Part shown: positions 16,674 to 60,272 of the stretch, in pieces
Position numbering within the stretch: position 1 is the stretch's first letter
How the letters are laid out: every line of letters starts with the position of its first letter
DNA from: an uncultured Prevotellaceae bacterium
GTDB lineage: Bacteria; Bacteroidota; Bacteroidia; Bacteroidales; Bacteroidaceae
Assembly (NCBI GenBank): GCA_937910905.1
Contig: CALEPV010000066.1
Span: 19,759 to 83,758 of the forward strand
Length of the DNA: 64,000 nucleotides
Direction of reading: 5' to 3'
Position numbers and translations under genes: made by a program
Notes under the pieces: generated by a model
What the model saw: the letters and a program-made list of their open reading frames with translations, nothing else
The model's database searches: none
Told to the model about the DNA's origin: nothing

Positions 16674-16755
16674 TTGCACCGTGCTGCAAGTGTCGCTGCA
16701 CCGCGGTGGAGAGGTTGTTGCACCGTGGTGCAGCTATAGTTGCACCGCGGTCGAA
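16674..16755 (-). repeat. Phased palindrome array, locus A (4 units, 22-bp register)
   Basis: Units at 16674, 16696, 16718 and 16740: TTGCACCGTGCTGCAA, CTGCACCGCGGTGGAG, TTGCACCGTGGTGCAG, TTGCACCGCGGTCGAA, with 6-bp spacers. Unit and spacer order matches the other loci when read on the minus strand. Confidence 0.95.
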
Positions 16756-16758
16756 CAA

Positions 16759-17901
16759 TCAGTGTTCCGCGAGCTTGATTACTTCGCGTGCTATCACCTC
16801 GGCTGCATCGGCCTTGCCCAGGCTGGCTGCGTTGGCTGCGAGCGTCTTCAGCTGTGGTATGTCGACAGCCGTCTTGAGGGCCAGTGGGACGAGCTGCTCG
16901 CGGGCATCGGCATCGCGCACCAGCAGGGCTGCCTCCTTATTGACCAACGCCATGGCGTTGTGCGTCTGGTGGTCTTCGGCCACATTGGGCGAGGGCACCA
17001 GTATGGACGGCTTGCCCAGCAGACAGAGCTCGCTGATGCTGCTGGCACCGGCACGGCTTATCACGAGGTCGGCTGCACGGTAGGCTTCGTCCATGTGGCT
17101 GATGAAGTCGGTCACCTTCAGGTTCGACGGGCACCCTTCGGCCTTGAGCCTCTCGCAGATGTCCTTGAAGTAATAACCGCCGGTCTGCCACAGTATCTGC
17201 ACATTGCTCTGGGCGATGGTCTGCAGCTGGCCCAGCACACTCTCATTGATGGTGCGCGCACCGAGGCTGCCGCCTACGATGAGCACCATCTCGCGCACCG
17301 GGTCGAGCCCCAGTCGCTCTATGGCTTCAGCGCGTGTCAGCTTGCAGTCGAGCAACTGCTGGCGCACGGGGTTGCCCGTGAATAGTATCTTCTCAGCAGG
17401 GAAGAAACGCTCCATGCCCTCGTAGGCCACGCAGATGCGGCGTGCACCCTTGGCCAGCAGCTTGTTGGTCACGCCGGCAAACGAGTTCTGCTCCTGCAGC
17501 AGTGTGGGTATGCCCATAGCGGCGGCCATGTTTAGCGTAGGGCCGCTGGCATAGCCGCCCACGCCTACTGCCACGTCGGGCTTGAACTCGCGTATGATCT
17601 TCTTGGCCATGCGGCGGCTCTTCATCAGCTTCCACAGCACAGACACGTTGCGCCACAGGTGCTGGCGGTCGAAGCCTGCCACAGGCAGACCCTTGATCTC
17701 GTAGCCGGCGGCCGGCACGCGCTGCATCTCCATGCGTCCCTCAGCGCCCACGAAGAGCAACTGTACATCGGGGCGCAGCTGCTGCAGTGCACCGGCTATG
17801 CTCAGTGCAGGGAATATGTGGCCTCCCGTGCCGCCGCCGCTGATGATGACGCGCAGCGGAGCTGCCTCTGAGGTTGTTGTGGATGGTATTGTCTGCTTCA
17901 T
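16759..17901 (-). CDS. murG: UDP-N-acetylglucosamine--N-acetylmuramyl-(pentapeptide) pyrophosphoryl-undecaprenol GlcNAc transferase
   Basis: SGGGTGGHIFPAL motif. dcw position. Confidence 0.95.
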   Translation of the reverse strand: MKQTIPSTTTSEAAPLRVIISGGGTGGHIFPALSIAGALQQLRPDVQLLFVGAEGRMEMQRVPAAGYEIKGLPVAGFDRQHLWRNVSVLWKLMKSRRMAKKIIREFKPDVAVGVGGYASGPTLNMAAAMGIPTLLQEQNSFAGVTNKLLAKGARRICVAYEGMERFFPAEKILFTGNPVRQQLLDCKLTRAEAIERLGLDPVREMVLIVGGSLGARTINESVLGQLQTIAQSNVQILWQTGGYYFKDICERLKAEGCPSNLKVTDFISHMDEAYRAADLVISRAGASSISELCLLGKPSILVPSPNVAEDHQTHNAMALVNKEAALLVRDADAREQLVPLALKTAVDIPQLKTLAANAASLGKADAAEVIAREVIKLAEH

Positions 17902-17912
17902 GGCTGTGTAGT

Positions 17913-18117
17913 ATTAACCCAAATCGGTCATTAGGATTTATGTCAGATTGGTATTTGTTTCGAGCAGATTGGCTGCATCACTGGCGAAGGCGTAGCGGGC
18001 TACGTCAAGACAGGGATGTGGACAAGATGCCGAAAGAAATGCTGATATGGCATGAATAGACTTATAATAGGCGATATTATAACGAATAGTTGGTCTAATG
18101 ACCGATTTGGGATTAAT
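17913..18117. repeat. MITE-like element bounded by 22/23-bp inverted repeats, filling the ftsW-murG spacer
   Basis: Left arm ATTAACCCAAATCGGTCATTAG (17913-17934). The reverse complement of the right arm (18095-18117) is ATTAATCCCAAATCGGTCATTAG, differing by one indel. About 160-bp AT-richer core. Confidence 0.8.
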
Positions 18118-18162
18118 GGTATAGCAATGTGCTTTCTATCGCTAAGGCTCTGCGTCTGCGAT

Positions 18163-19374
18163 CTATTCCTGGACGGCCGGCTGCGGGGTCGGCTCTTTCC
18201 TAGTGGCCCGGCTGATAGATATCATCATGCCTATGTAGGCACAGTTCATCATCATCGACGAGCCGCCTCGACTGATCAGAGGCAACGGCTGGCCGGTGAT
18301 GGGCATCAGTCCGACGGCTACGAGCATGTTCACGCACGCCTGCACGGTGATGAGCAGAGCCAGCCCCATCATAATGTAGGCAGGGAAGTTGTTCTCGCAT
18401 CGTCGTGCCAGCTTGGCCGCTCGATAGAGCAGTATGATGTACATGGATATCACGACGAAGGCTCCCAGAATGCCCAGCTCCTCGATGATGATTGGGAAGA
18501 TGAAGTCGGAGTAGGCCTGTGGCAGGTCCTCGCGGACGCGCGAGTTGCCCGGGCCGCGGCCTATCACGTTGCATGTGGCTATGGCTATGCGGGGTTGCAG
18601 TATCTGCGGATTGGTGCTCAGATCGACGCTGTCGGGGTCGGCTGGGAAGGCTGTTGTGCTGCGCACACGGCCCGACCACGTCTTTACGCGGTGGAACACA
18701 GACACCTCCGAAATCTTATCTATCGCCGGCTCGGGTGTGTAGCGCAGGAACGAGTAGGCTGATGCGCCGGATATGACAATCACGCCGAACATTATGCCGA
18801 ACTCCTTGGCAGGCACCTTGCCTACGAACATCAGCATCATCACCACGAAGAACACGATGCCCGCTGTGGACAGGTTCTCGGGAGCTATGAGGGCGCAGGT
18901 GCATAGGGTGATACCCAGTATCCAGTAGAACGCACGCTTGGTGGCTCCGTGCTCATCGCGCATAGCGCCCAGCAGCCACGATACCACCACTATCAGCACG
19001 CCCTTGGCTATCTCGGACGGCTGCACGGAGAACCCTAGGATGCTCACCCATCGGGCGCCATCGTTAGCGCCCTTGGAGAATAGCGCTGCCAGGAGCAGTA
19101 CCAGGCTCAGCGGTACTCCGATGAGCACTATCCAGCCGTAGTAGCGGCTGGGTATACGTGAACATGCCCATGCCACCACCAGGCCCATAACCCAGTACCC
19201 GGCGTGCTGCATGATAGGGCGCCAGAACGCTGCATGGTTGTTGAATGTCATATTGCTTGAGGCACTGTATACTTCCAGAATAGACACTATACAGAAGCCC
19301 AGCAGCAGCACCCAGAGTGATGTGTCGCCATCGAAGAGCTTGCGCACGGATATGTTCTTATTGCTTACGGTCAT
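18163..19374 (-). CDS. ftsW: Peptidoglycan glycosyltransferase FtsW (SEDS family)
   Basis: Polytopic SEDS protein (...LPITGQPLPLISRGGSS...). dcw position. Confidence 0.9.
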   Translation of the reverse strand: MTVSNKNISVRKLFDGDTSLWVLLLGFCIVSILEVYSASSNMTFNNHAAFWRPIMQHAGYWVMGLVVAWACSRIPSRYYGWIVLIGVPLSLVLLLAALFSKGANDGARWVSILGFSVQPSEIAKGVLIVVVSWLLGAMRDEHGATKRAFYWILGITLCTCALIAPENLSTAGIVFFVVMMLMFVGKVPAKEFGIMFGVIVISGASAYSFLRYTPEPAIDKISEVSVFHRVKTWSGRVRSTTAFPADPDSVDLSTNPQILQPRIAIATCNVIGRGPGNSRVREDLPQAYSDFIFPIIIEELGILGAFVVISMYIILLYRAAKLARRCENNFPAYIMMGLALLITVQACVNMLVAVGLMPITGQPLPLISRGGSSMMMNCAYIGMMISISRATRKEPTPQPAVQE

Positions 19375-19392
19375 GGATCCAAAGTGTTGTGT

Positions 19393-20724
19393 TTATAGGT
19401 TGCGTACCAATGTCTTGAACTGCTCGCCGCGGTCCTCCATGTTCTTGAACAGGTCGAAGCTGGCGCAGCATGGCGAGAGCAGCACGGTGTCGCCATCGTG
19501 GGCCAGGCGTGCACACGCCTCAACGCACTCTGGCATGGAGTGTGTCTCGACCATCGGGATCCCCATCGGGTCGAAGAAGGCGTGCAGCTTGGAGTTGTCC
19601 ACACCGAGGAACACCAGTGCGCGGCACTTCGTGCGAACCAGTTCGCGTATGGCCTCGTAGTCGTTTCCTTTGTCCAGACCACCGAGGATGAGCACGGTGG
19701 GGGTGGTCATGCTCTCCAGTGCATACCAGCAGGCATCGACATTGGTGGCCTTGGAGTCGTTGATGTACTGTACGCCGTGCACCTTGCACACGCGCTCCAA
19801 GCGGTGCTCGACACCCTCGAAATCGGATAGCGAGGCGCGTATCACGTCGTTGCTGATGCCACTCAGGTCGGCTGTGATGCCAGCGGCCAGCGTGTTGTAC
19901 ATATTGTGCTTGCCCGACAGCGACAGCTCCTCCTGCTCCATGTTGAACGGGGTGGGGCGCTCTATGTGGTATTCGCCATCGGCGATATAGCCTATCATGC
20001 CCTCCTTCTTAACTATGCTGAACGGGCACATACGGCTCTCGATATGGTATTTCTCCAGTTCGTGCTTGATGATGGGGTCCTCGTTCCAGAACACGAAAGC
20101 GTCGTCGGCAGTCTGATTCTGGAGTATGCGCATCTTGGCGTCGGTGTACAGCTGCATCGATCCCTGATAGCGGTCCAGGTGGTCGGGCGTGATGTTCAGG
20201 AGTACTGCAATGTTTGCGCGGAAGTCGTACATATTGTCCAGCTGGAAGCTGCTCAGCTCGATGACGTAGTACTCGTGAGGCTCTTCAGCCACCTGCAGGG
20301 CCAGCGAGTTGCCTATGTTACCAGCCAGGCCAACATCGTAGCCAGCATTCTTGAAGATGTGGTAGATGAGGCTGGTGGTCGTTGTCTTGCCGTTGCTGCC
20401 AGTGATGCAGATCATCTTGCTGTCGGTGTAGCGGCCGGCAAACTCTATCTCGCTGATGATTGGGATGCCTGCGGCCTTCACCTTCTGCACCATCGGAGCC
20501 GTGTCGGGGATGCCTGGGCTCTTGATTACTTCGTTAGCATTGAGCACCAGCTGTTCGGTGTGGCCACCCTCCTCCCACGCTATGCCGCGTGCGTCGAGCA
20601 TCTCCTTGTAGTGGGGCTTAATGCGTCCCATGTCCGACACAAAGGTGTCGAAACCCTTCTTCTGTGCCAGTACAGCGGCTCCAACACCGCTCTCGGCTGC
20701 ACCTAATATAACTATTCTTGACAT
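19393..20724 (-). CDS. murD: UDP-N-acetylmuramoylalanine--D-glutamate ligase
   Basis: MSRIVILGAAESG and GSNGKTTT motifs. Start trimmed to ATG 20724, 17 nt after the mraY stop. Confidence 0.95.
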   Translation of the reverse strand: MSRIVILGAAESGVGAAVLAQKKGFDTFVSDMGRIKPHYKEMLDARGIAWEEGGHTEQLVLNANEVIKSPGIPDTAPMVQKVKAAGIPIISEIEFAGRYTDSKMICITGSNGKTTTTSLIYHIFKNAGYDVGLAGNIGNSLALQVAEEPHEYYVIELSSFQLDNMYDFRANIAVLLNITPDHLDRYQGSMQLYTDAKMRILQNQTADDAFVFWNEDPIIKHELEKYHIESRMCPFSIVKKEGMIGYIADGEYHIERPTPFNMEQEELSLSGKHNMYNTLAAGITADLSGISNDVIRASLSDFEGVEHRLERVCKVHGVQYINDSKATNVDACWYALESMTTPTVLILGGLDKGNDYEAIRELVRTKCRALVFLGVDNSKLHAFFDPMGIPMVETHSMPECVEACARLAHDGDTVLLSPCCASFDLFKNMEDRGEQFKTLVRNL

Positions 20725-20741
20725 TTTCCAGTGTGTTAGCA

Positions 20742-22217
20742 TTATCGAATCTTCAGCGTTGCGACAGCTATGGCGCACGCTATGATAGTTATTATCCAGA
20801 AGCGCACGGTCACCTTGTTGTCGTTCCAGCGGCCGCGGGGCCAGTCGATGATGAACTTCAGGTCGGGGTTGCTGGCCAGCAGCTGCTCGGTACTGTAGCG
20901 GAATGTATCGTGGATGGGGGCACGCTTGAACAGGCGTATCTTCTTGCCTGTAGGGTTGCCGCGGCGGTTGTCGCGCTTGGCTACGGCCGTCTGGAAGAAC
21001 GATGAGAGGGTCTCGGCAATGAAGATGAAGCAGATGAAGAATAGCAGTAGCTCCTTATGGATAATCACGGCTGTGACAGCCATGATGCTACCTATGGTGA
21101 GGCTTCCAGTGTCGCCCATCCACATCTGTGCCTCCGATGCGTTATACCACAGGAAGCCTATCATTGCACCCACGCACGCCAGTAGGAAAATCACTAGTTC
21201 CTCGCTGCCGGGCACGTACATTATATTAAGGTATGAGGCCAATGCTATGTGCGACGATACGTAGGCCAGTATCGCCAACGTCAGGAACATGATTGACGAG
21301 TTGCCGACACACATACCGTCCATGCCGTCGTTGAGGTTGGCACCGTTGGAGATGAGCATTACGAAGAACAGCGTAACGCCCACAAACAGTATCCATCCTG
21401 CCACATGACGATATTCTCCAAGGAATGAAAGGATGCCTCCATAGCTGATGTTATGCTCCTTCACAAACGGTATAGTGGTCATGTTGCTCTTCACGGGCTC
21501 GCTCTTCATCATCACTGTCTGTCCCTGCTGACGCTCCACGGTGACATTCTCGTGGATTACAGCGTCTGGGCTCAGCCACAGTGTGAGGCCTACGGCAAGG
21601 CCCAGCAGACCCTGACCCAGCAGCTTGGTCAACGGACGGATGCCGTCCTTGGCATTGGGGCTGACTAGCATGTTCAGACTGCTCAGCTGGCGTGCATCCT
21701 CGACAGTGTCAAAGTGCTTGAACACTGGCATCTTGCCCTTGCGCTCTTCGGAGTAGATTACATCAAGGTCGGAGAGGTCCTGGATGTCGGCCGGCTTGCT
21801 GATACCACGCTCACGCAACTGCCGTAGAGCCAGGCGTATGATGCGGGACGCCTTGATCTTCTTCCAGTCGTCCATGAAGCCGAACAGCCCCATCCACACT
21901 GTTGTGCCAAGCATAAGGAGCATGTAGATGTTGCGCAAGCGGCCCAGCAGCAATGTCGGTATGATGATGGCCAGTATGATGACCAGCCCGCCCATCGACG
22001 GAACACGACGTGGTCGTGAGAAGGGGTCGATGTCGGCCGAGCGCGGCTCCTCGTAGAAGTCGTGGCGCTGCATCCACTTGATGAAGTACTCACCAAGCCA
22101 CATGGATATAATCAACGAGAGCACCAGCGTGAGCAGTGCGCGGAAGCTGATGTAGCTCCACAGATGTGCGCCGGGTATGCCGTATTCGCTTAGATATCGG
22201 AACAGATAGTATAGCAT
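20742..22217 (-). CDS. mraY: Phospho-N-acetylmuramoyl-pentapeptide transferase
   Basis: NGANLNDGMDGM and MGDTGSL motifs. ATG 22217 (MLYYLFRYL) is preferred over the TTG at 22250. Unusually long at 491 aa. Confidence 0.93.
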   Translation of the reverse strand: MLYYLFRYLSEYGIPGAHLWSYISFRALLTLVLSLIISMWLGEYFIKWMQRHDFYEEPRSADIDPFSRPRRVPSMGGLVIILAIIIPTLLLGRLRNIYMLLMLGTTVWMGLFGFMDDWKKIKASRIIRLALRQLRERGISKPADIQDLSDLDVIYSEERKGKMPVFKHFDTVEDARQLSSLNMLVSPNAKDGIRPLTKLLGQGLLGLAVGLTLWLSPDAVIHENVTVERQQGQTVMMKSEPVKSNMTTIPFVKEHNISYGGILSFLGEYRHVAGWILFVGVTLFFVMLISNGANLNDGMDGMCVGNSSIMFLTLAILAYVSSHIALASYLNIMYVPGSEELVIFLLACVGAMIGFLWYNASEAQMWMGDTGSLTIGSIMAVTAVIIHKELLLFFICFIFIAETLSSFFQTAVAKRDNRRGNPTGKKIRLFKRAPIHDTFRYSTEQLLASNPDLKFIIDWPRGRWNDNKVTVRFWIITIIACAIAVATLKIR

Positions 22218-22239
22218 GACAGGATGGAGTCTGTATTTG

Positions 22240-23691: not shown

Positions 23692-23730
23692 ATCTGTTGT
23701 ATGGTCTTGGTTACATTGTTAGTCCTTGCA

Positions 23731-28874: not shown

Positions 28875-28962
28875 TTGCACCGCGGTGCAGCTCTATTTGG
28901 ACCGCGGTGCAGCTGTCGTTGCACCGTGCTGCAGCGTGTGTTGCACCGCGGTGCAACTTTCG
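28875..28962 (+). repeat. Phased palindrome array, locus B (4 units plus CTTT tail)
   Basis: Units at 28875, 28897, 28919 and 28941: TTGCACCGCGGTGCAG, TTGGACCGCGGTGCAG, TTGCACCGTGCTGCAG, TTGCACCGCGGTGCAA, then CTTTCG. Confidence 0.95.
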
Positions 28963-30341
28963 GGCAGTGCGAACAGCGTGTGTGCCTCTATGTGCTGGCT
29001 GCGTATGCGCCACTCCTTCGGGTATAGGTTGTTGGCGCGGTTGCCCAGGTTCTTGGCTGGTCCCAGCTGCCGGCCCTGGTAGCACAGCTGCACGGTGCCG
29101 CGGGGCGTGTCGGCGGGCAGGGCGATGCTCTCGCGTTGCAGATACCGCAGTGCGTCGGTCAGGCTGACCTCCACTAGCGGGGTGCCGGTTGACACCTGCA
29201 GCGTATCTGTAGGCAGTGTCCTGACGCGTGCGGCTACGGCGGCAAGCAGGGGCGGCAGCGCAGGGCGGGCTGCTTGCTGCGCATAGGGTGTGCGCTGCGG
29301 CTTGCTGTGGTGGCTGTCGGTACGCTCGCGTCCCTTGGCGCGATTGCTACTCTTGGAGCTCTTGGCCTTGGTCAGCGACTCTATGGCTACCGTGATGTCT
29401 GACTGGCCATGCTTGCGCAGCACGGCCAGGAAGAAGCCTTCGCCCTGCACGTAGCCTGGCAGCAGGTGGCAGCAGTCGAGGCTCAGCATATCTGTTTCTG
29501 CGGTCGCGGCAGCTGCGCTGGGGGTAGCATCGCCTATGATGCCCCACTGTGCAGGCACGCTGAGCCTCACGATGTCGGCTCCCAGCTGGCTGGCAATCCA
29601 GTGCACATTGGCCTCGTCCTCCAGCGGGTTGAGGGTGCAGGTGCTGTAGATGAGCGTTCCGCCGTCGGCCAGTGCTGGCCAGATGTCGGCTATGATGCTG
29701 CGTTGCAGCTCGGCCAGCCGCTCCACGGCCTCTATGCTCCAGCCTTCCACGGCATCGGGCTCCTTGCGGAACATCCCCTCGCCAGAGCATGGAACGTCGG
29801 CCACTATCAGGTCGAATACGCCCTGCATTCGTCCCAGCTCCTCGGCTTGGGCATTGGTGCAGATGGTGTTCTGCGCCCTCCATTTGGCTATGTTCTCTGC
29901 CAGGATGTCGGCGCGTTTGGGCAGCGCTTCGTTGGCCACGAGGGTGCAACTGTCGGGCAGTACGGCGCGCATCAGCGTGGTCTTGCCGCCCGGAGCGGCG
30001 CAGAGGTCCAGTGCGCTGCGGTATGTGCCCTCACTGTCGGCGTGCAGCTGCCGCAAGGCGTAGGCCAGGAACATCGAACTGGCTTCCTGCACGTAGTAGG
30101 CTCCGGCGTGCAGCAGTGGGTCGGCAGTGAAGGTGGGCCGGCTCTGCAGGTACACCCCTTCCGGGCACCACGGCACTCTCCCTACCGCCCCATCCGGCTC
30201 AGCGTCGGCTGGCAGCATTGCGGGGTTCATGCGGATGCTCACTGGCGACGGCTCCTGCAAGCCTGCTGCGAAGCGCTGCACCACTTCGGGGCGCACGCGC
30301 TCGCTCAGCCACTCGATGTAGTTCCTGGGCAGCTGCACCAT
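28893..30341 (-). CDS. RsmB/RsmF-family (NOL1/NOP2/Sun) rRNA m5C methyltransferase
   Basis: DLCAAPGGKT and DVPCSGEGMFRK motifs. The last about 23 codons and the stop lie inside repeat locus B. Confidence 0.8.
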   Translation of the reverse strand: MVQLPRNYIEWLSERVRPEVVQRFAAGLQEPSPVSIRMNPAMLPADAEPDGAVGRVPWCPEGVYLQSRPTFTADPLLHAGAYYVQEASSMFLAYALRQLHADSEGTYRSALDLCAAPGGKTTLMRAVLPDSCTLVANEALPKRADILAENIAKWRAQNTICTNAQAEELGRMQGVFDLIVADVPCSGEGMFRKEPDAVEGWSIEAVERLAELQRSIIADIWPALADGGTLIYSTCTLNPLEDEANVHWIASQLGADIVRLSVPAQWGIIGDATPSAAAATAETDMLSLDCCHLLPGYVQGEGFFLAVLRKHGQSDITVAIESLTKAKSSKSSNRAKGRERTDSHHSKPQRTPYAQQAARPALPPLLAAVAARVRTLPTDTLQVSTGTPLVEVSLTDALRYLQRESIALPADTPRGTVQLCYQGRQLGPAKNLGNRANNLYPKEWRIRSQHIEAHTLFALPESCTAVQHTLQHGATTAAPRSK

Positions 30342-35755: not shown

Positions 35756-35830
35756 GGCACTTTTTTCCATTCGAGCAAGCATTGCCGCATTTTTAGGCCT
35801 TGTTATTGCGCATTTTTAGCTGATTTACAC

Positions 35831-35838
35831 TACCTTTG
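35831..35838 (+). promoter_or_regulatory. -7 box TAccTTTG for efp
   Basis: TACCTTTG 63 nt upstream of ATG 35902. Confidence 0.55.
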
Positions 35839-35901
35839 CACCCGCAAATGGCACAATGCGTGCCTTTTCCACGTTTATTTCTTACACTATACATTTATAT
35901 T

Positions 35902-36468: not shown

Positions 36469-36517
36469 CCGCACTGGCATATCGCGGTGTCGGAACCTTG
36501 GCATTGCGATGTAGCTT

Positions 36518-36606
36518 AAAAAACATGCGCGTGTTAAATAAATGACACGCGCATGTTTTTTATTTAACACGCGCGTGTCATTTATTTAACACGCGCATGT
36601 TTTTTG
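36518..36606. terminator. A-tract/hairpin/T-tract bidirectional terminator embedded in a 4-unit, 22-bp-phased palindrome array
   Basis: 12-nt cores at 36523 (ACATGCGCGTGT), 36545 (ACACGCGCATGT), 36567 (ACACGCGCGTGT) and 36589 (ACACGCGCATGT). Cores 1 and 2 are exact reverse complements, flanked by AAAAA and TTTTTT. Core 4 is followed by TTTTT. Confidence 0.75.
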
Positions 36607-38387: not shown

Positions 38388-38528
38388 TGTCGGGTTGCGT
38401 GGTCAAAAGTACAACAATTCACTCAATTGGCCGTCGCAGCAGCGGCATTTCTGCATTCCGCAGGGCCAAAAAAGGTGCTTTGAAACAAAAAGAAAGCCGC
38501 CGGGTGCTTGCGTTTCGCAGATTATGCC

Positions 38529-38536
38529 TACCTTTG
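38529..38536 (+). promoter_or_regulatory. -7 box TAccTTTG for rplS
   Basis: TACCTTTG 93 nt upstream of ATG 38629, within the 16-mer CTACCTTTGCACCCGC shared with the efp promoter. Confidence 0.5.
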
Positions 38537-38628
38537 CACCCGCTTTCGGCGTAATCGCTGGCAGGATGAAGAGTGGCCTGTTATGTTGCGCTGGACGACA
38601 ATAACAATTTTAACCGTCATCAATCACA

Positions 38629-39003
38629 ATGGCAAACCTAATTAAAATTGCTGAGGAAGCATTTGCTACAGGTAACATCAGCAAGTTCGACAGCTTCGCA
38701 CCTGGCGATACCGTTACCGTAGACTACAAGATTGTCGAGGGCAACAAGGAGCGCGTTCAGCAGTATCGCGGCGTGGTCATCAAGATCAGCGGCCACGGCG
38801 ACAAGAAGCGTTTCACTGTCCGCAAGATGAGCGGCACCGTGGGTGTGGAACGTATCTTCCCCCTCGAGAGCCCGAACATCGAGATGATTACTCGCGTGAA
38901 GCAGGGTCGCGTACGTCGCGCCAAGCTCTACTATCTGCGTGGACTCACAGGTAAGAAGGCCCGCATCCCCGAGAAGCGTACTGCTGCCAAGGCAGAGGCC
39001 TAA
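38629..39003 (+). CDS. rplS: 50S ribosomal protein L19
   Basis: 124 aa. [29 protein letters not shown]... is canonical L19. Confidence 0.96.
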
Positions 39004-39020: not shown

Positions 39021-39108
39021 GTGCACCGCGGTCCAACTATTGTTGCACCGCGGTGCAGCGTTTTCTGCAGCGTGCTCCAACGATGGTTGCAGCACGCTGC
39101 AACTTTTC
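39021..39108 (+). repeat. Phased palindrome array, locus C (4 units plus CTTT tail)
   Basis: Units at 39021, 39043, 39065 and 39087: GTGCACCGCGGTCCAA, TTGCACCGCGGTGCAG, CTGCAGCGTGCTCCAA, TTGCAGCACGCTGCAA, then CTTTTC. Starts 17 nt after the rplS stop. Confidence 0.95.
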
Positions 39109-46063: not shown

Positions 46064-46256
46064 AGACCCACCCTTCACCCTCCCTGTGAGGGAGGAAGTG
46101 GTTACTTTGGCGGGCATAAGGATTATTGGTTAGACGTAGTGTGTAATGGAGTAAGATATAGTGTGTGATGGAGTTAGACGTAGTGTGTAATGAGATATAG
46201 CCTATTCTTGAAAGGTGACTACTCCTTCCCTTACAGGGAGGGTGAGGGGTGGGTCT
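46064..46256. repeat. Composite element: two about 41-bp inverted copies of a G/C-block hairpin repeat flanking 3.3 tandem 22-bp units
   Basis: Left arm 46064-46104 AGACCCACCCTTCACCCTCCCTGTGAGGGAGGAAGTGGTTA. The reverse complement of 46216-46256 matches at about 35 of 41 positions. Tandem units TTAGACGTAGTGTGTAATGGAG at 46130, 46152 and 46174. Confidence 0.85.
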
Positions 46257-46274: not shown

Positions 46275-47321
46275 TTACTTGTCGAAGTTGATGTTGCTGC
46301 CGCCGATTTCGTTGCCATCAGCGAATATCTGTACACGGTACTGGCCAGCCAGAAGCATTTCGGTCACGTCCCAATAGACGGTCACGGCGGTCTCCTCGCC
46401 GTTGTACTCGATGTCCTTGCGTATGGAGTATTCCAGCTGGCGGTTGGCATAGCTGAAGGTTCCACCGCCGTTGAGGGCATCGCCCGTGGGCTTGAGTATG
46501 CGTACGTATATGGTCTTGATGCCGGTTTGTGCAGTGACATTGCGGGCTATCTTGAAGTCGATCTGGAACTTCTTTACGTCCGCAATCTTGCGTGCAGGCT
46601 TGCCTTTCTTGTTCTTGGCTGTGATGGCAACTGCCGTTGCATCCAGTTGGGCGGCTATTGCCACCTGGTCAGAGAGCTGCTCGTTCTGGTTGTTGAGGGC
46701 GCTGATCTGCTGTTGCTGTGCCGCCTGTTGCTGCCGCAGGTCCTGGTTCTCGGCGGTGAGCTGCGTGTTGAGGCGGTTCAGCGAGTCGATTTCAGCGACA
46801 AAGCTCTTCAGCACCTGGCGCATGGTGGCCAGCTCGCGGCGCAGTCGGGCAATCTCGGCAGCGTCCGAAGCCTTGGTCTGCTCCAGCTCCTGCAATAGGT
46901 TTTGCACCTCCTGCTCGCGCTGTGAGAGCTGTGCGATGAGCGAGTCGTTGCTGATCTGCGTGCGCATCTCGCTGTACTGGCGTGCGAAGCTCTCGTACTC
47001 GTTCTTCATCTCAGTCTTGTCCATCTCGGCAATCTGTAGCAGTTGCTCGTTCTGCTCGGCCTTCTCCTGCAGCGGTGCGATGACGAAGAAGTATGTGCAC
47101 AGAGCGGCAATAAGAAGAACGATAGCTGCGAGTAGCCAGGGCCATGGCAAAATCCCTCCACCTGCCCTCCCTTGTGGGGAAGTAGAGGCTGCGGACCCTG
47201 CTCCCGCCCTCCCTGTGAGTGAGTGAGCGGTTTGTTCTGTGCCAAGGGAATTGACAGCACCGTCGATTATATCGTCGGTCTTATTATCCGTTGTCTTATT
47301 ATCTGTTGTCTTATCATCCAT
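46275..47321 (-). CDS. Membrane-anchored coiled-coil protein with C-terminal beta-rich domain, function unknown
   Basis: 348 aa. DNKTT repeats, a repeat-derived G/A-rich segment, TM (LLAAIVLLIAALCTYFFVI), about 150 aa of Q/E/L-rich coiled coil and a globular C-terminus. Confidence 0.5.
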   Translation of the reverse strand: MDDKTTDNKTTDNKTDDIIDGAVNSLGTEQTAHSLTGRAGAGSAASTSPQGRAGGGILPWPWLLAAIVLLIAALCTYFFVIAPLQEKAEQNEQLLQIAEMDKTEMKNEYESFARQYSEMRTQISNDSLIAQLSQREQEVQNLLQELEQTKASDAAEIARLRRELATMRQVLKSFVAEIDSLNRLNTQLTAENQDLRQQQAAQQQQISALNNQNEQLSDQVAIAAQLDATAVAITAKNKKGKPARKIADVKKFQIDFKIARNVTAQTGIKTIYVRILKPTGDALNGGGTFSYANRQLEYSIRKDIEYNGEETAVTVYWDVTEMLLAGQYRVQIFADGNEIGGSNINFDK

Positions 47322-50728: not shown

Positions 50729-50838
50729 ACACACCGCGGTGCACCAAAAGTTGCACCGCGGTGTAAGTCTAGTTGCACCGTGCTCCAGCTATCGCTGCAC
50801 CGCGGTCCAACTCATGTTGCACCGTGCTGCAACTTTAA
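50729..50838 (+). repeat. Phased palindrome array, locus D (5 units plus CTTT tail)
   Basis: Units at 50729, 50751, 50773, 50795 and 50817: ACACACCGCGGTGCAC, TTGCACCGCGGTGTAA, TTGCACCGTGCTCCAG, CTGCACCGCGGTCCAA, TTGCACCGTGCTGCAA, then CTTTAA. Starts at the nucleotide after the rsmA stop. Confidence 0.95.
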
Positions 50839-50854
50839 GCGTGCTGTGCTGTGC

Positions 50855-52078: not shown

Positions 52079-52112
52079 TGTGTTGTATGATGTTTGTTTA
52101 TGTGCTTGTTGC

Positions 52113-52763: not shown

Positions 52764-53239
52764 TGTTGCAATGACGGTATAATTTCAGCTATATGGTTCA
52801 ACAGTTCGCTGCGGTCGGCGCCTTCGGCCATGACTACTATCACTGTGTCGTCGCCTGCCACGGTGCCGATAATCTCAGGAATGGTGTAGTGGTCTATGTC
52901 GTAGGCCAGATGTGCGGCATGTCCCGGAGGTGTCTGCAGCACAGCTATATTGCCGCTGAACTTCACGCCCACGGCGCCCAGCTGGTTCATGCGCTGCACT
53001 GTGGCGTGTGTGTCGCTCACGCGGTGGTAGCGCCTCTGCTCCGGTAGCAGGTACACGTATGTGCCGTTGTCGTTCAGCCCCTTTGCCACACGCAGCTGTC
53101 GCAGGTCGCGCGACAGAGTGGCCTGCGTGGTGTTGTAGCCTGCCTGTGCAAGCTCGTCGCGAAGCTCGTTCTGGTTGGATATCTCGCTGCTGGAAAGTAT
53201 CATCTTGATGATTTCAAGACGCGAGTCACGTTTGCCCAT
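52760..53239 (-). CDS. argR: Arginine repressor
   Basis: 159 aa. RLEIIKMILSS..ISNQNELRDELAQAGYNTTQATLSRDLRQL winged-helix and C-terminal GTVAGDDTVIVV. Confidence 0.9.
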   Translation of the reverse strand: MGKRDSRLEIIKMILSSSEISNQNELRDELAQAGYNTTQATLSRDLRQLRVAKGLNDNGTYVYLLPEQRRYHRVSDTHATVQRMNQLGAVGVKFSGNIAVLQTPPGHAAHLAYDIDHYTIPEIIGTVAGDDTVIVVMAEGADRSELLNHIAEIIPSLQQ

Positions 53240-53277
53240 GGTGGTATACTGTTTGAAAGATTATGCGTTAACGGCTG

Positions 53278-53285
53278 CAAAGGTA
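53278..53285 (-). promoter_or_regulatory. -7 box TAccTTTG for argR
   Basis: Reverse complement reads TACCTTTG, 39 nt upstream of ATG 53239. Confidence 0.5.
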
Positions 53286-53369
53286 GCGTAATTATTCCAT
53301 TCGAGCTGCATAAAAACATAAGTTTATTGCGCACAGTGCATAATTTTATGAGGTATATTGCAATTATTG

Positions 53370-53377
53370 TACCTTTG
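53370..53377 (+). promoter_or_regulatory. -7 box TAccTTTG for the TPP-riboswitch transcript
   Basis: TACCTTTG about 10-15 nt upstream of the riboswitch P1 region. Confidence 0.55.
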
Positions 53378-53385
53378 CAGCGAGT

Positions 53386-53472
53386 TATCAAGGGGTGTCC
53401 TTCCAGCTTGGGAGGACTGAGATTATACCCTCTGTACCTGATGCGGGCAATGCCGACGTAGGGATGGATAGT
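53386..53472 (+). promoter_or_regulatory. TPP (THI-box) riboswitch
   Basis: AGGGGTG...CTGAGA...ACCC...ACCTGAT...GGCAATGCC..CGTAGGGA core elements in canonical order. Followed by GCGCCCCTT (able to pair with AAGGGGTG) and the hairpin CCTTTATT...AATAAAGG abutting ATG 53541. Confidence 0.9.
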
Positions 53473-53540
53473 GTAAGCTTTAGAGGCAGCCGCGGCGCTG
53501 CGCCCCTTTATTGTTGAACAATATTAATAATAAAGGAACA

Positions 53541-55991: not shown

Positions 55992-55999
55992 GCATCCCT

Positions 56000-56602
56000 A
56001 TGTACGAGTTCATTCAGCACTACGGCCTCGACATAGCAACCACTCTGCTGGGCGTGATATACATCGTGTTTGAGTATCGCGCCAGCATCTGGCTGTGGCC
56101 TGTGGGTGTGCTGATGCCGCTGCTCAACATCTTCCTGTTCTACGACCGGGGTCTATATGCCGACATGTCGATGTCGGTGTACAGCACCTTGGCTGCGCTC
56201 TACGGCTTCCTGCTGTGGCGCTTCGGCAAGAAGAAGGAGCAGGCGGAGCGCCCGATAACGCATATCCCATGGCGCTCGCTGTCGATAGCCACCGTGGCGT
56301 TCCTCACCATCTGGGCCGTCATATACTATCTTCTGGCGCACTACACCAACTCCACGGTGCCGATGACCGACTCGTTCACCAATGCCCTGGAGATTGTCGG
56401 CCTGTGGGCTCTGGCACGCAAGTACGTGGAGCAGTGGTTCATATGGATTCTCATGGACGCCGTGGCAACGGTACTCTACTTCTACAAGGACATGCCCTTC
56501 AAGGGCACCCTTTATGCAGCCTATGTGATCATAGCTGTGGCCGGCTACCGCGAGTGGCTGCGCAAGATGCACACAGAACAGCAAACGACAACTGCTATAT
56601 GA
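56000..56602 (+). CDS. pnuT: PnuC-family transporter (PnuT-type, predicted thiamine permease)
   Basis: 200 aa. PnuC-like helices (WLWPVGVLMPLLNIFLFY..., ...ARKYVEQWFIW). Under a TPP riboswitch. Confidence 0.8.
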   Translation: MYEFIQHYGLDIATTLLGVIYIVFEYRASIWLWPVGVLMPLLNIFLFYDRGLYADMSMSVYSTLAALYGFLLWRFGKKKEQAERPITHIPWRSLSIATVAFLTIWAVIYYLLAHYTNSTVPMTDSFTNALEIVGLWALARKYVEQWFIWILMDAVATVLYFYKDMPFKGTLYAAYVIIAVAGYREWLRKMHTEQQTTTAI

Positions 56603-57891
56603 CACTCTTCGAGCTCAACAACATCGTTCAACAGGCACTGAAACTCACGCTCGATGACAGCTACTGGGTGGATGCCGAGGTCAGCGAGGCACGTCTGGCC
56701 AGCAACGGCCACTTCTATGTAGAGTTCACTCAGAGCGACACATTCGGGCGGGGCATGGTGGCCAAGGCACGCGGCACGATGTGGCGTGCCACCTACGCAC
56801 GGCTGATGCCCCGCTTCGAGCAGGCTACCGGCGAGCGCCTGCGGGCCGGCATGAAGGTGAGGGTAGAGGTGCAGGTGGTGTTTCACGAGCTGTATGGCTA
56901 CTCGCTGAACATCATCGACATCGACCCTGCGTTCACCCTTGGCGACATGGCTCAGCGGCGGCGCGAGATACTGCGCCAGCTGGAAGCCGACGGCATCATC
57001 GAGGACAACCGCTCGCTGCCGCTGCCTGCGCTACTGCAGCGCATAGCAGTGGTGTCGTCGGCCACTGCTGCCGGCTACGGCGATTTCTGCAAGCAGCTGA
57101 CGTCCAACAGCGAGCATCTGGCCTTCGACCTGCGGCTCTTCCCGGCCGTGATGCAGGGGCAGCACGTGGAGCAGAGCGTGATGGCGGCGCTACAGGAGGT
57201 CTGTGCCGACAGCGCGCGATGGGATTGTGTGGTAATCATTCGCGGCGGTGGAGCTACCAGCGACCTGGCCGACTTCGACAGCTATCCGCTGGCAGCGGCC
57301 GTGGCGCAGATGCCGCTGCCGGTCATCGTAGGCATAGGACACGAGCGCGACACCACGGTGCTCGATGTCGTGGCCCATACTGCGCTGAAGACCCCCACGG
57401 CAGTGGCGGCATTCATCCTGGACCATCAGCTGGCCGCGCTGCAGCGCGTGGAGACCGCCGCCACCACGGTGATGCGTGCTGCGCGAGAGACAATGCTGCG
57501 TGAGCGCAACCGCTTCGAGCTGATGGCACGCACGCTGCCGCAGAGCTTCCTGCTGCGCTGCGAGCGTGAGCATCGCCGCATAGACGGCCTCATGCAGTCC
57601 CTGCCACACACGGTGAAGATGCGCTGTGAGCGCGAGCGGAGCCGGCTGGACAATGTGGAGCAGGGGATGAAGCGCACGGCCAGTACACGCCTGCAGCAAG
57701 CCGCGATGCAGCTGCAGCTGCTGGAACAGCGCTGTCAGGCTCTCGACCCGCAGGTGCAGCTGAACCGCGGCTACTCGCTCACCTACCACGACGGACGCCT
57801 GTTGCGCACAGCCGCAGGCCTGCACGACGGCGATGCCATTGCCACACGCCTGGCCGACGGGGTGCTGCACACGGTGGTCAGACAGCCTTAG
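56599..57891 (+). CDS. xseA: Exodeoxyribonuclease VII large subunit
   Basis: MTLFELNNIVQQAL...VDAEVSEARLASNGHFYVEF...IIRGGG motifs. The ATG overlaps the pnuT stop (ATGA). The track ORF from 56095 is an out-of-gene upstream extension. Confidence 0.9.
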   Translation: MTLFELNNIVQQALKLTLDDSYWVDAEVSEARLASNGHFYVEFTQSDTFGRGMVAKARGTMWRATYARLMPRFEQATGERLRAGMKVRVEVQVVFHELYGYSLNIIDIDPAFTLGDMAQRRREILRQLEADGIIEDNRSLPLPALLQRIAVVSSATAAGYGDFCKQLTSNSEHLAFDLRLFPAVMQGQHVEQSVMAALQEVCADSARWDCVVIIRGGGATSDLADFDSYPLAAAVAQMPLPVIVGIGHERDTTVLDVVAHTALKTPTAVAAFILDHQLAALQRVETAATTVMRAARETMLRERNRFELMARTLPQSFLLRCEREHRRIDGLMQSLPHTVKMRCERERSRLDNVEQGMKRTASTRLQQAAMQLQLLEQRCQALDPQVQLNRGYSLTYHDGRLLRTAAGLHDGDAIATRLADGVLHTVVRQP

Positions 57892-57947
57892 GCGTTAATA
57901 TCTGTTATAAGTTGGGCGCACAAGGGTGTTGTGTTGAGCAGAGTTGT

Positions 57948-57955
57948 TAACTTTG
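57948..57955 (+). promoter_or_regulatory. -7 box TAacTTTG for the DUF1573 gene
   Basis: TAACTTTG 25 nt upstream of ATG 57980. Confidence 0.5.
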
Positions 57956-57979
57956 CAAGTCAACCGTAACCAAACAGCT

Positions 57980-59059
57980 ATGACCTTACGACGCACAGCA
58001 TCAGCAATAGCTATATATACATTCTTTATTGTTCTGTCTGCGGTAGCCCAGCCACGCGTGGAGGTGGTCAACGACATCGTGAACATGGGCGAGGTGATGT
58101 ACCGCACCCCGCGCGTGGCGACTTTCGAGCTGCGCAACGTGGGTACAGAACCCATGCACATCACGGCTGTGAACCCCTCGTGCGGCTGCACTAAGGTGGC
58201 CTACGAGCAGGGCGAGGTGGCAGCTGGAGCCAGTACGCGCATCACTGCCGAGTACGACGCACGGCTGCTGGGCACGTTCCAGAAGGAGCTGGAGGTGTAC
58301 ACCGACGGTGCTGCCGAGCCTCTCTACCTGACGTTGCAGGGCCGTGTGGTGGCCACGATGACCGACTATTCGGGCTCGTTCCCCTACGACCTGGGTGCCG
58401 TGAAGCTGTCGGCTGCAGAGGTGGAGTTCGACGACGTGAACCTGGGCGACCGCCCTGTGGTGGAGCTGCAGGTGGTCAATGTGTCGCGCCACAGCTACAC
58501 GCCGCAGCTGATGCATCTGCCACCCTACATCGAAGCCAAATACATACCCGAGCGTCTGGCAGGCGGGCGTGTGGGACGTATACAGCTCAAGCTGAACAGC
58601 GATCAGCTGAAGAGCTACGGCCTCACGCAGACCACTGTCTACCTGGCTCGCCAGCCGGGCGACAAGGTCAGCACGGACAATGAAATCAGCGTGTCGGCCG
58701 TGCTGCTGCCGGCATTTGCCCACCTCTCGGCTGCCGAGATGGCCGCTGCACCGCACATGGAGCTCTCGGAGGACAGCCTCGACATGGGCGCCATGAAGGG
58801 CAAGAAAAAGCTCTCGCGCACCATCACCGTGAGGAACACGGGGCAGTCGCCGCTCATCGTGAGCAGCGTGCAGGTCTACGGCAAGGCGCTGGGCGTGAGC
58901 CTGTCGAACCGCACCGTAGAGGCTGGGCAGACGGCCAAGCTGAAGATTACGGCCTATCAGCAGTACGTGGCTACGGCCAAGACCATGCCGCGCGTGCTGC
59001 TCATCACCAACGACCCGTCGTGGCCGAAGCATACGATAAGAGTGAACGTAACGAAATAA
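57980..59059 (+). CDS. Secreted DUF1573 (ASPM/SPD-2/Hydin-like Ig fold) repeat protein
   Basis: Signal peptide. F.L.N.G..PL.I....SCGCT motif (FELRNVGTEPMHITAVNPSCGCT) and a second related repeat. Confidence 0.7.
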   Translation: MTLRRTASAIAIYTFFIVLSAVAQPRVEVVNDIVNMGEVMYRTPRVATFELRNVGTEPMHITAVNPSCGCTKVAYEQGEVAAGASTRITAEYDARLLGTFQKELEVYTDGAAEPLYLTLQGRVVATMTDYSGSFPYDLGAVKLSAAEVEFDDVNLGDRPVVELQVVNVSRHSYTPQLMHLPPYIEAKYIPERLAGGRVGRIQLKLNSDQLKSYGLTQTTVYLARQPGDKVSTDNEISVSAVLLPAFAHLSAAEMAAAPHMELSEDSLDMGAMKGKKKLSRTITVRNTGQSPLIVSSVQVYGKALGVSLSNRTVEAGQTAKLKITAYQQYVATAKTMPRVLLITNDPSWPKHTIRVNVTK

Positions 59060-59066
59060 TCCCGAT

Positions 59067-60164
59067 ATGGAACACCCCGAGAACAACGAAGAGTATAAGG
59101 GTCTGACCGTGAACAGCGGCATTGAGCAGCCCTCAATCCTCAACCCGTATCTGCAGCGCAACCGTTTCCGCAGGCGCCAGCTGACGGTCGACGACTACGT
59201 TGATGGTATACTCAGTGGCAACGTGACCATACTGGGTCAGGCCGTGACGCTCATCGAGAGTACCAACCCGCAGCATCAGGCTGTGGCACAGGAGGTGATA
59301 GAGCGCTGCCTGCCACACAGCGGGCGCTCGGTGCGCATAGGCATCAGCGGCGTACCGGGAGCGGGCAAGAGTACCAGTATAGATGAGTTCGGACTGCATG
59401 TGCTCAACGAGCATGGCGGCAAACTGGCTGTGTTGGCCATCGACCCGAGCTCGGAGAAGACCAAGGGAAGCATACTCGGCGACAAGACGCGCATGGAGAA
59501 GCTCAGCGTACACCCCGACTCATTCATACGCCCCAGCCCCTCGGCCGGCTCCTTGGGCGGTGTGGCCCGCAAGACCCGCGAGACCATCATACTGTGCGAG
59601 GCGGCGGGCTTTGACAAGATATTCGTGGAGACCGTGGGCGTAGGCCAGAGCGAGACAGCCTGCCACTCGATGGTCGACTTCTTCCTCGTGATACAGCTGG
59701 CAGGTACCGGCGACGAGCTGCAAGGCATCAAGCGCGGCATCATGGAGATGGCCGACGGCATAGCCATCAACAAGTGCGACGGCGACAATGTGGAGCGCTG
59801 CCAGCTGGCGGCCACGCAGTTCCGCAACGCCCTGCACCTCTTCCCGATGCCCGAAAGCGGCTGGATGCCCAGGGTGCAGTGCTACTCAGGCTTCTACGGA
59901 CTGGGCATCAAGGAGCTGTGGGACGGTATCTACGAGTACATCGACTTCGTGCGCGGGAACGGCTACTTCGAGCATCGGCGCGCGGAGCAGGCCAAGTACT
60001 GGATGTACGAGAGCATCAACGAGCAGTTGCGCAACGGCTTCTACAATAACGAGACGATAGCCTCGCTGCTGCCGCGCGCCGAGCAAGCGGTGCTTGACGG
60101 ACAGAAGACATCCTTCGTCGCAGCCAAGCAGTTGCTCGATGCCTACTTCGCCCTGCTGAAATAG
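59067..60164 (+). CDS. meaB: MeaB/ArgK-type G3E GTPase (methylmalonyl-CoA mutase chaperone family)
   Basis: GISGVPGAGKST Walker A, ETVGVGQSE and NKCD motifs. Confidence 0.88.
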   Translation: MEHPENNEEYKGLTVNSGIEQPSILNPYLQRNRFRRRQLTVDDYVDGILSGNVTILGQAVTLIESTNPQHQAVAQEVIERCLPHSGRSVRIGISGVPGAGKSTSIDEFGLHVLNEHGGKLAVLAIDPSSEKTKGSILGDKTRMEKLSVHPDSFIRPSPSAGSLGGVARKTRETIILCEAAGFDKIFVETVGVGQSETACHSMVDFFLVIQLAGTGDELQGIKRGIMEMADGIAINKCDGDNVERCQLAATQFRNALHLFPMPESGWMPRVQCYSGFYGLGIKELWDGIYEYIDFVRGNGYFEHRRAEQAKYWMYESINEQLRNGFYNNETIASLLPRAEQAVLDGQKTSFVAAKQLLDAYFALLK

Positions 60165-60184
60165 GCATTCTGAAGGATAAAAAG

Positions 60185-60272
60185 TTGCACCGCGGTCCAG
60201 CAATAGTTGGACCGCGGTGCAACTGTTGTTGCAGCACGCTGCAAGTGTCGCTGCAGCACGCTGCAACTTTAT
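60185..60272 (+). repeat. Phased palindrome array, locus E (4 units plus CTTT tail)
   Basis: Units at 60185, 60207, 60229 and 60251: TTGCACCGCGGTCCAG, TTGGACCGCGGTGCAA, TTGCAGCACGCTGCAA, CTGCAGCACGCTGCAA, then CTTTAT. Lies between convergent meaB and ispH. Confidence 0.95.

Follow-up and report, generated by a model that had tools for sequence, protein, structure and literature searches.

What are the runs of short palindromes that recur among the housekeeping genes of an uncultured Prevotellaceae bacterium, and what holds them in so exact a register? The question is raised by positions 19,759 to 83,758 of contig CALEPV010000066.1 (GenBank assembly GCA_937910905.1), a stretch of 64,000 nucleotides that we analyzed as a whole and refer to as the window; it belongs to a metagenome-assembled Bacteroidaceae genome of bioreactor origin (sample ERZ922530). 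Five loci in it are arrays of four to five units, each unit a 16-bp palindrome followed by a 6-bp spacer, and each locus is one copy of an interspersed element of about 88 bp in which four dyad-symmetric 16-bp sites stand in an exact 22-bp register. Our preferred reading, to which we give a probability of roughly 0.4, is that the array is a phased landing pad for a putative dimeric DNA-binding protein, with any hairpin or terminator activity secondary.

One element in a fixed register

When up to two mismatches were allowed, the degenerate unit TTGCASCRYGSTGCAA matched the window 20 times, against 0.5 matches expected from shuffled sequence; 19 of the 20 lay inside the five loci, with successive unit starts exactly 22 bp apart. 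This bears out the initial annotation, made from the letters of the window, which had described five loci of four to five units at that spacing. The two-unit pattern CACCGCGGT-N14-ACCGCGGTG had four matches in the window (none expected), and all 12 occurrences of ACCGCGGT fell within arrays. Tandem Repeats Finder (TRF) and a repeat finder retrieved the same 22-bp arrays, and by these two programs the phased palindromes are the sole multi-locus repeat family of the window. Outside the arrays the motif CCGCGG was unremarkable (21 found, 38 expected).

The units are symmetric 16-mers, TTGCACCGCGGTGCAA, assembled from the half-sites TTGCACC, TTGCAGC and TTGGACC and their hybrids; the first two, with hybrids, had been recognized from the start, and TTGGACC is now added. 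A further array of four units (array 6) lies 10 kb past the left end of the window in the same genome (L114 11977-12058; L numbers denote the additional stretches of DNA compared here). It starts 11 nt past the stop codon of an acyltransferase gene and is read on the strand of the neighboring genes. Array 2 of the window and array 6 match unit for unit, at 62 of 64 unit bases, while their spacers are near-random. The unit order A-B-C-D of array 2 recurs with near exactness in array 6, and the element therefore has a real polarity, in agreement with the original view of one dispersed family with a definable orientation.

Could the arrays be an artefact of assembly? We reject this because the units are imperfect copies and because arrays occur in the output of several assemblers, MEGAHIT and SPAdes among them to judge by contig names, as well as in an isolate genome, that of Bacteroides ihuae.

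Conserved dyads, free spacers and the place of hairpins

Among the six copies of this genome the units are 82% identical, the spacers 47% and the third spacer 32%, and there are no indels. The initial annotation had taken spacers and tail to be conserved as well, and that stands only in part: the first spacer is CTATAG-like in the majority of copies and a CTTT tail is present in four of the five window copies, but the spacers as a whole are not conserved. Within the unit, the invariant positions mirror each other (T2, A5 and C7 against G10, T12 and A15), and positions 4/13 and 6/11 are C or G. A second comparison comes from one orthologous array of four units in six metagenome-assembled genomes (MAGs; L003, L004, L013, L034, L049 and L076, alignment A3), where none of the four cores varies, the spacers have been scrambled and no indel occurs over 88 bp, with several indels in the flanks. 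A TAnnTTTG -7 box precedes this array by about 25 nt, and in L003, L013, L034 and L049, where an HU-HIG/winged-helix gene was confirmed, the start codon of that gene follows at 45-70 nt (313 nt in L049); the array adjoins a VapE-like primase/helicase gene that is divergent from it in at least L004 and L013. By both comparisons, the units and their spacing are maintained and the spacer sequence is not, a pattern that a selfish copy decaying neutrally would not produce.

Does this pattern reflect a site in double-stranded DNA or a hairpin in RNA? The CGCG at the center of the unit, of which the variants CGTG and CACG also occur, is a palindrome in its own right, as a hairpin loop need not be. 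Pairing between the outer arms is near that of shuffled controls (33 against 28.6, 35 against 34.2 and 36 against 28.8 of 58 pairs; the last value is nominally high and is reached by 79 of 2000 shuffles), and the outer arms of the arrays in Prevotellaceae BH.3_6 do not pair at all. In the window, 137 of 168 intra-unit pairs are Watson-Crick and 16 are C.C or G.G mismatches, none of them compensated within the unit, so that left and right arms vary almost independently. Taken together, the palindromic center, the independence of the arms, the uncompensated mismatches and the conservation pattern favor, as far as sequence comparison goes, recognition of double-stranded dyads, with a contribution from RNA possible.

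On this basis we suggest that the array would act first at the DNA level. A sequence-specific homodimeric protein would bind each dyad, and four dimers (five in some genomes) would align on one face of the helix, forming a complex that selection, or a copying machinery, would preserve. The protein might be a regulator or a nucleoid protein or, equally, the recombinase or transposase that spreads the element; the HU-HIG/winged-helix gene with the conserved array in its own leader offers a lead, with autoregulation of that gene as the alternative. Copies would be tolerated in short spacers just past stop codons, where, if transcribed, they would fold into very stable hairpins.

Several observations weigh against this proposal. 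The link between the putative binder and HU-HIG comes from one orthologous locus in four to six genomes. The C/G degeneracy at positions 4/13 and 6/11 would be unusual for a specific binder. When one hairpin per unit is modeled at the six-genome locus, there are three compensatory pairs and a covariation of 0.131 against 0.097, which 15 of 500 shuffles reach; this is weak, and it nonetheless points toward RNA. G.U-type mismatches slightly exceed C.A-type mismatches (9 against 5 in the six arrays, about 10 against 6 in the conserved leader), a tally taken only from these two orientable sets since the pooled 58-pair set is unoriented. The co-orientation of five of the six copies with the gene before them, and the position of all of them at stop codons, fit a role in RNA at least as well. 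Finally, many arrays of 22-bp period are unrelated in sequence, and one protein cannot explain them all.

What an RNA-level account would say is that the array is a 3'-untranslated element resembling repetitive extragenic palindromic (REP) sequences, whose long hairpins terminate transcription and/or block 3'-5' exonucleases and so stabilize the upstream mRNA, the conservation of sequence being due to an RNA-binding protein or to recent common descent. We regard this account as somewhat unlikely. The predicted folds are indeed stable, -40 to -67 kcal/mol with z-scores of -4 to -10, but they are so on both strands, as any run of palindromes would be. The minimum-energy structures are long hairpins between units and not one hairpin per unit, which revises the initial annotation: it had proposed a stem in each unit as well as pairing between units, and the predicted folds retain the latter, while the former, with its imperfect pairing, is weakly supported. 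Inter-unit models (1:2 with 3:4; 1:4 with 2:3) showed no covariation at the six-genome locus. Weak intra-unit covariation and the U.G pairs that the conserved HU-HIG leader shows on its sense strand favor the RNA account; the frequent uncompensated mismatches, an arm pairing hardly above shuffled, the unpaired outer arms of BH.3_6, and a palindromic loop and indel-free 22-nt register that no hairpin needs tell against it. Of the two options first offered, the DNA landing pad fits the conservation pattern better than the one-hairpin RNA picture.

The positions of the copies bear on the same choice. Array 1 (16674..16755; four units at the 22-bp spacing, in canonical orientation when read on the minus strand) occupies the spacer between murG and murC, beginning 3 nt past the murG stop (16759-16761) and ending 24 nt before the real murC ATG (16648-16650); its sense-strand tail is AAAA instead of CTTT. 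Array 2 (28875..28962, plus strand; four units and a CTTTCG tail) is antisense to both its neighbors, an rsmF-like gene (28893-30341) and sufS, which are on the minus strand. Array 3 (39021..39108, plus strand; four units and a CTTTTCG tail) begins 17 nt past the rplS stop (39001-39003) and is followed by the TAacTTTG -7 box of the next gene, a member of family GH95. Array 4 (50729..50838, plus strand) consists of a degenerate unit (50729-50744), four regular units and a CTTTAAG tail; its first base directly follows the rsmA stop, and 16 nt separate it from the stop codon of argG, which is convergent. Array 5 (60185..60272, plus strand; four units and a CTTTATG tail) begins 20 nt past the meaB stop, 41 nt from that of the convergent ispH, and its units 1 and 2 are fully complementary to one another.

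All six copies thus abut a stop codon, at gaps of 3, 17, 0, 20 and 11 nt for arrays 1, 3, 4, 5 and 6, and five of the six are co-oriented with the gene whose stop they follow, array 2 being antisense; for the four window copies behind murG, rplS, rsmA and meaB this is as first described. The names of the flanking genes also hold, with two corrections. The murC start had been set wrongly, the real ATG being the second one, beyond array 1, and the minus-strand rsmF-like open reading frame (ORF) extends into array 2 by 23 codons, its stop codon being supplied by the array. The PUA domain of the RsmF-like protein is complete at residue 446 of 482, before the array-derived stretch, and the insertion of array 2 seems to have replaced the native 3' end of this ORF.

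Stop-codon positions at six of six copies and co-orientation at five are what an RNA-level element would lead one to expect, as is the fact that the array is the only terminator-like structure in the three spacers in which transcription has to stop, behind rplS, at rsmA/argG and at meaB/ispH, with U-rich tails CUUU, UUUUUAU and UUUAUUUU; behind rplS this follows from the GH95 -7 box that comes after the array. An A-rich left flank and the CTTT right flank supply U-rich tails on both strands. A terminator consensus scan flagged arrays 4 and 5 strongly on the minus strand, as a hairpin with TTTATTTT and as a 17-bp stem with TTTTTAT, respectively; on the plus strand its matches were a weak one in array 5 and one in the middle of array 3, with none in array 4, and the plus-strand U tracts are only 3-4 long, which counts against the RNA-level account. 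None of the three copies placed between co-directional genes ends in a U tail when read in sense, which fits the RNA-level account and, at n=6, is suggestive only. Against that account, one copy sits within the dcw operon just before murC, where a terminator would do harm. Judged by these features, the arrays at rplS, rsmA/argG and meaB/ispH probably also serve as transcription terminators, a function that our landing-pad proposal admits as a secondary one.

Insertion, spread and the wider class of arrays

Are the copies ancestral to their spacers, or did they arrive there? The initial annotation had suggested that presence or absence in orthologous intergenic regions would indicate mobility, and at both junctions compared, relatives lack the array. 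The C-terminus of MurG has the same conserved residues as MurG of the relatives, and the array comes after its stop codon. The murG-murC junction is without an array in L111 (MurG 86% identical; 215 nt of unrelated sequence), in L112 (83%; 32 nt) and in L113 (79%; 3 nt). The window spacer minus its array, 3 + 24 nt, is about as long as the 32 nt of L112. Nor is there an array after meaB in four relatives (L100-L103; MeaB 87-94% identical), and no array of the window type occurs in about 145 kb of DNA from these murG and meaB relatives, the lone weak core match, in L112, being a different repeat. Because the orthologous junctions are without it, we read the window copies as insertions, and this counts in favor of the landing-pad proposal too.

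This finding suits a further explanation, that of a selfish, non-autonomous repeat like a MITE (miniature inverted-repeat transposable element) or a REPIN, with no host function and a transposase encoded elsewhere, the units being binding sites of that transposase and for that reason uniform. Presence/absence polymorphism at orthologous sites is a mark of MITEs, and there are about six copies in some 74 kb, every one in a spacer, one of them overrunning the 3' end of the rsmF-like ORF. MuA and TnsB bind end sites that are 22 bp long. Furthermore, L104 and L107, which are near-identical loci, differ by exactly two units (44 bp). The explanation would also be helped by the BH.3_6 arrays described below, which lie inside a dispersed composite that breaks contigs, and by an element in the window bounded by terminal inverted repeats (TIRs) that encloses a 22-bp array. 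Yet alignment of the five window copies with their flanks revealed no target-site duplication and no terminal repeats beyond an AAAG...CTTT extension of the outer palindromes, the window yielded no transposase, spacers and units would wear away alike under neutral decay, and an array with invariant cores has been kept in an orthologous 5' leader in six genomes, which implies selection at the level of the host there at least. As a full explanation we consider it unlikely.

Two structures near arrays deserve description. In L104 (8700-9300), L107 and L108, and also in L105 and L106, the array abuts a segment of about 200 bp bounded by 22-nt inverted repeats TTTGACATACCTTCATCATTTT. Direct repeats of 11 bp lie within this segment, which is upstream of a lipoprotein gene and has the look of an invertible promoter; the near-identical loci of this group differ by 44 bp and by 11 bp. 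The TIR-bounded element of the window (46064-46256) lies between a DUF8429 gene and an EIIC-GAT gene; its two 45-nt inverted arms (84% complementary) enclose an unrelated array of 22 bp x 2.8 (46132-46192), and a partial third copy of the arm is found at 47194-47232.

How far does the family extend? A scan with CACCGCGGT-N14-ACCGCGGTG over one genome per GTDB species gave at least 98 stretches. Among the matches listed, about 42 stretches are Bacteroidales, with carriers that include Prevotellaceae BH.3_6, Alloprevotella, Paraprevotella, Bacteroides ihuae and many rumen and gut Bacteroidaceae MAGs; the remainder, mostly two-unit matches in GC-rich genomes of Actinomycetota and the like, are consistent with chance plus a few unrelated tandem repeats. 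At least 39 arrays in at least 16 other Bacteroidales genomes have the core CACCGCGGTG and the 22-bp period in common and differ in their outer arms. Of the 124 unit steps in 39 Bacteroidales arrays from 16 genomes among these matches, 122 measure exactly 22 bp; the search pattern had set 39 of the 124, and 83 of the other 85, which are free observations, were also 22 bp. This exact phasing supports the landing-pad proposal. Complete arrays among the matches listed have four units (19 arrays), five (11) or three (4). The outer arms are particular to each genome: CGCC..GGCG, TGTC..GACA, TTTC..GAAA, CGAC..GTCG, CTAC..GTAA or GTTC..GAAC, with TTGC..GCAA in the window. Bacteroides ihuae Marseille-P2824T, a culturable carrier, has GTTCACCGCGGTGAAC arrays. 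When Joint Genome Institute (JGI) metagenomes were scanned for the arm type of the window, five loci only were found, all of a different sub-family (ATGCACCGCGGTGCGA...), so that orientation statistics for the window family stay at n=6.

The window family is accordingly the branch of one lineage within a class that many Bacteroidaceae genomes carry; what is widespread in that class is the core CACCGCGGTG and the register. Recurrence in relatives, on which the original description had made its case depend, is thus seen for core and period, but the exact TTGCA-type family appears confined to the lineage of the window.

Context varies within the class. In BH.3_6 a five-unit array stands inside a dispersed composite element of about 600 bp with at least 14 copies, made up of a leader with two hairpin and T-run motifs, then the array, then a tail; all nine complete composites precede assorted housekeeping genes and share their orientation (rpoD, topoisomerase, ruvB, nusB, uxaC and others), and many BH.3_6 contigs terminate in the element. 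In other MAGs arrays sit in divergent promoter regions or 5' leaders, so that contexts overall comprise 3' spacers, gaps between convergent genes, the inside of an operon and 5' leaders, in either orientation, a variety that speaks for the landing-pad proposal. At one locus (L031 2096-2330) five CTACACCGCGGTGTAA units continue unbroken into at least six TTACCCGAGGGGGTAG units of the same 22-bp register, with the same arms and another core. Two loci of the Thermoanaerobaculia MAG SMAG_U11946 (Acidobacteriota; L026 2732-2899 and L036 648-750), with a common downstream flank, carry three to four ACCCACCGCGGTGGGT palindromes at 22 bp; core and period of the CACCGCGGTG class thus occur outside Bacteroidales as well. 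BLAST of the arrays against a phage collection gave no match, and scans of viral contigs returned one unrelated 11-bp repeat and no relatives of HU-HIG.

The period also occurs with other sequences. In about 0.5 Mb of Bacteroidaceae DNA, 22 bp dominates among tandem arrays of period 15 or more, even when the pattern-selected arrays are removed. Some of these arrays are 16+6 or 14+8 palindromes of other sequence (GTCTCACCGGTGAGAC, TTCACACTTGTGAA, AACCCTT.AGGGTT, ATCATGCGCATGAT), and others are purine-rich and made of sub-repeats of about 7 nt. The relatives used above carry such palindrome arrays at L113 275-400, L111 19300-19379, L102 5665-5737, L103 5875-5932, L100 18650-18734 and L112 16170-16270, of the types GTCTCACCGGTGAGAC+6, TTCACACTTGTGAA+8, AACCCTT.AGGGTT+8 and ATCATGCGCATGAT, together with a direct-plus-inverted set after ftsZ; the AACCCTT.AGGGTT+8 array recurs at the orthologous psd-pssA spacer in two species. 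The CACCGCGGTG arrays may be the most frequent kind within a broader class of phased arrays.

The window has two more arrays of this period. At 36509-36605, between a convergent metallophosphatase gene and efp, ACACGCGCATGT palindromes in 22-bp register with flanking A and T runs look like a bidirectional intrinsic terminator; an Rfam search there gave sub-threshold hairpin (miRNA-precursor) matches only. At 3513-3619 there is a purine-rich array, 22 bp x 4.9, with sense strand GGAATGAAAAGTAAAGAATGGA and sub-repeats of about 7 nt. Purine-rich arrays are also found at L100 9897-9992, L112 7393-7440 and L113 2372-2426. Like the one in the window, they start on the stop codon of one gene and reach the next, and AGTGAAA-type arrays similar to that at 3513-3619 occur in operon junctions of the relatives. 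Such arrays may represent the A-rich leaders for translation that are typical of Bacteroidetes.

It is tempting to extend the landing-pad proposal to the whole class. Palindrome arrays in 22-bp register would then be a family-wide system of cis-elements read by expanded, fast-evolving dimeric DNA-binding proteins, with HU-HIG/winged-helix paralogues as candidates and with a site of its own in each lineage; the complexes would be boundary or insulator elements that separate transcription units, or self-propagating binding-site cassettes, the CACCGCGGTG arrays would be the most widespread member, and the GTCTCACCGGTGAGAC, TTCACACTTGTGAA and AACCCTT.AGGGTT arrays would be sister families. We put this forward as speculation and think it quite improbable as a whole.

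Known systems and significance

Is any described element built in this way? An Rfam search, at the gathering threshold and also at E <= 1, gave no family for the arrays (array 2 had a meaningless 26-bit miRNA-precursor match, E = 0.48), and in the searchable literature we found no description of the array family, the motif matches there being cloning primers. The arrays also fall outside the REP, MITE and CRISPR definitions tested, so the initial impression that this is no described REP, bacterial interspersed mosaic element (BIME) or MITE family is upheld, as is the observation that the window has no transposase, REP-associated tyrosine transposase (RAYT) or cas gene. CRISPR arrays have repeats of 23-50 bp, unique spacers of similar length, and cas genes or a leader; with 6-bp spacers, four to five units and no cas genes in the window, we reject that identity.

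Iterons call for closer comparison. They are direct, non-palindromic repeats that neighbor an AT-rich region and a rep gene, and each replicon has one set. The arrays might be such replication-origin iterons, or plasmid-type centromere repeats, of integrated mobile elements, given that the 22-bp period and the copy number match classical iterons and that an array lies beside a VapE-like primase/helicase gene in several MAGs. Context already disfavors this for the window copies, however: six copies are scattered through some 74 kb of housekeeping core DNA (ack-pta, the dcw cluster, efp, rplS, rsmA, meaB), with no rep gene and no AT-rich unwinding region beside the window arrays and no BLAST match in phages. 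BLAST of array 2 against a plasmid collection gave one record, Methylomagnum ishizawai plasmid pRS11DPr3, in which eight perfect 22-bp repeats CCACCGCGGTGCGGCTTTTCGT directly follow trfA and precede an AT-rich stretch (L110 2975-3165); these happen to contain CCACCGCGGTG and, judging from their layout, appear to be unannotated oriV iterons of that plasmid. Like iterons of the RK2/TrfA type, the arrays would present a protein-binding site every 22 bp on one helix face, in 4-8 copies and with free spacers, whereas their units are palindromic and dispersed along the chromosome. The period matches, but the neighbors are murG/murC, rsmF/sufS, rplS, rsmA/argG and meaB/ispH; we reject the iteron identity and hold the iteron or centromere account to be very improbable.

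Twenty-two base pairs are about two turns of the helix. In Bacteroides, the predicted operators of hybrid two-component system (HTCS)/AraC-type regulators are 12-16-bp sites at about 21 bp, e.g., 16 + 5, read as bound by monomers on the same face two helical turns apart (PMC3878776). Those operators are two direct repeats upstream of specific polysaccharide-utilization operons, whereas the arrays are four palindromes, dispersed and past stop codons. Together, the trfA iterons and the HTCS operators make the 22-bp register an established signature of proteins aligned on one face of DNA.

With REPs and BIMEs the arrays share short palindromic intergenic repeats in many copies, lineage-specific sequence families, and positions mostly downstream of genes, between convergent or co-directional genes; REPs are often transcribed, and termination, mRNA stability and protein binding have been proposed as their roles (PMC3733652). 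In a GTAG/CGTC REP, however, an imperfectly palindromic stretch of 20-40 nt carries GTAG or CGTC as an unpaired tag on one of its ends (Di Nocera 2013, PMC3733652), and REP head-to-tail dimers are reported to be negligible (PMC3733652). The array units are fully dyad-symmetric 16-mers with no unpaired tag, in head-to-tail order at exactly 22 bp and not alternating with variable linkers, and we reject both the REP identity and the BIME layout; array size is constant at four to five units, and no RAYT is known for the family, none being present in the window or its flank. A nearer analogue within Bacteroidales is the BrickBuilt MITE of Porphyromonas gingivalis, an intergenic, dispersed element with tens of copies, 1-23 copies of a 23-nt tandem repeat without long spacers, leader and tail segments of 200-300 nt and IS5-type terminal repeats (PMC4596501). 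The BH.3_6 composite (leader, five units, tail) and the window element at 46064-46256 resemble it; the window arrays, unlike it, lack a leader and a tail, terminal repeats and a target duplication, and hold at four units. With only AAAG...CTTT common to the flanks and no direct duplication, BrickBuilt, and MITEs in general, serve as an architectural analogue and not as an identity. The array family is, in short, REP/BIME-like in its genome behavior and built like a plasmid iteron array.

Two other features of the window stand apart from the arrays. At 53381-53482 (plus strand) is a thiamine pyrophosphate (TPP) riboswitch (RF00059, 62.4 bits, above gathering), the sole Rfam family to pass in the window, upstream of a TonB-dependent receptor gene and a gene of the nicotinamide mononucleotide (NMN)-transporter family, which probably form a thiamine-related uptake operon. 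A 31-nt motif ending in CTACCTTTGCACCCGC is common to 35815-35845 and 38513-38543, upstream of efp and rplS, and holds the Bacteroidetes -7 promoter box TAnnTTTG.

Interspersed palindromic repeats have been well studied in Proteobacteria (REP/RAYT, Correia, BOX); to our knowledge they have hardly been studied in Bacteroidales, a dominant order of the gut and rumen microbiota. The arrays break short-read assemblies and, because copies are insertion-polymorphic between close relatives, are candidate markers for related species and strains. If they terminate or insulate transcription, they would be relevant to operon annotation and to synthetic biology in Bacteroides and Prevotella. A 10-bp core maintained across genera, an indel-free register of two helical turns and a near-constant number of units together point to a specific trans-acting protein in these organisms.

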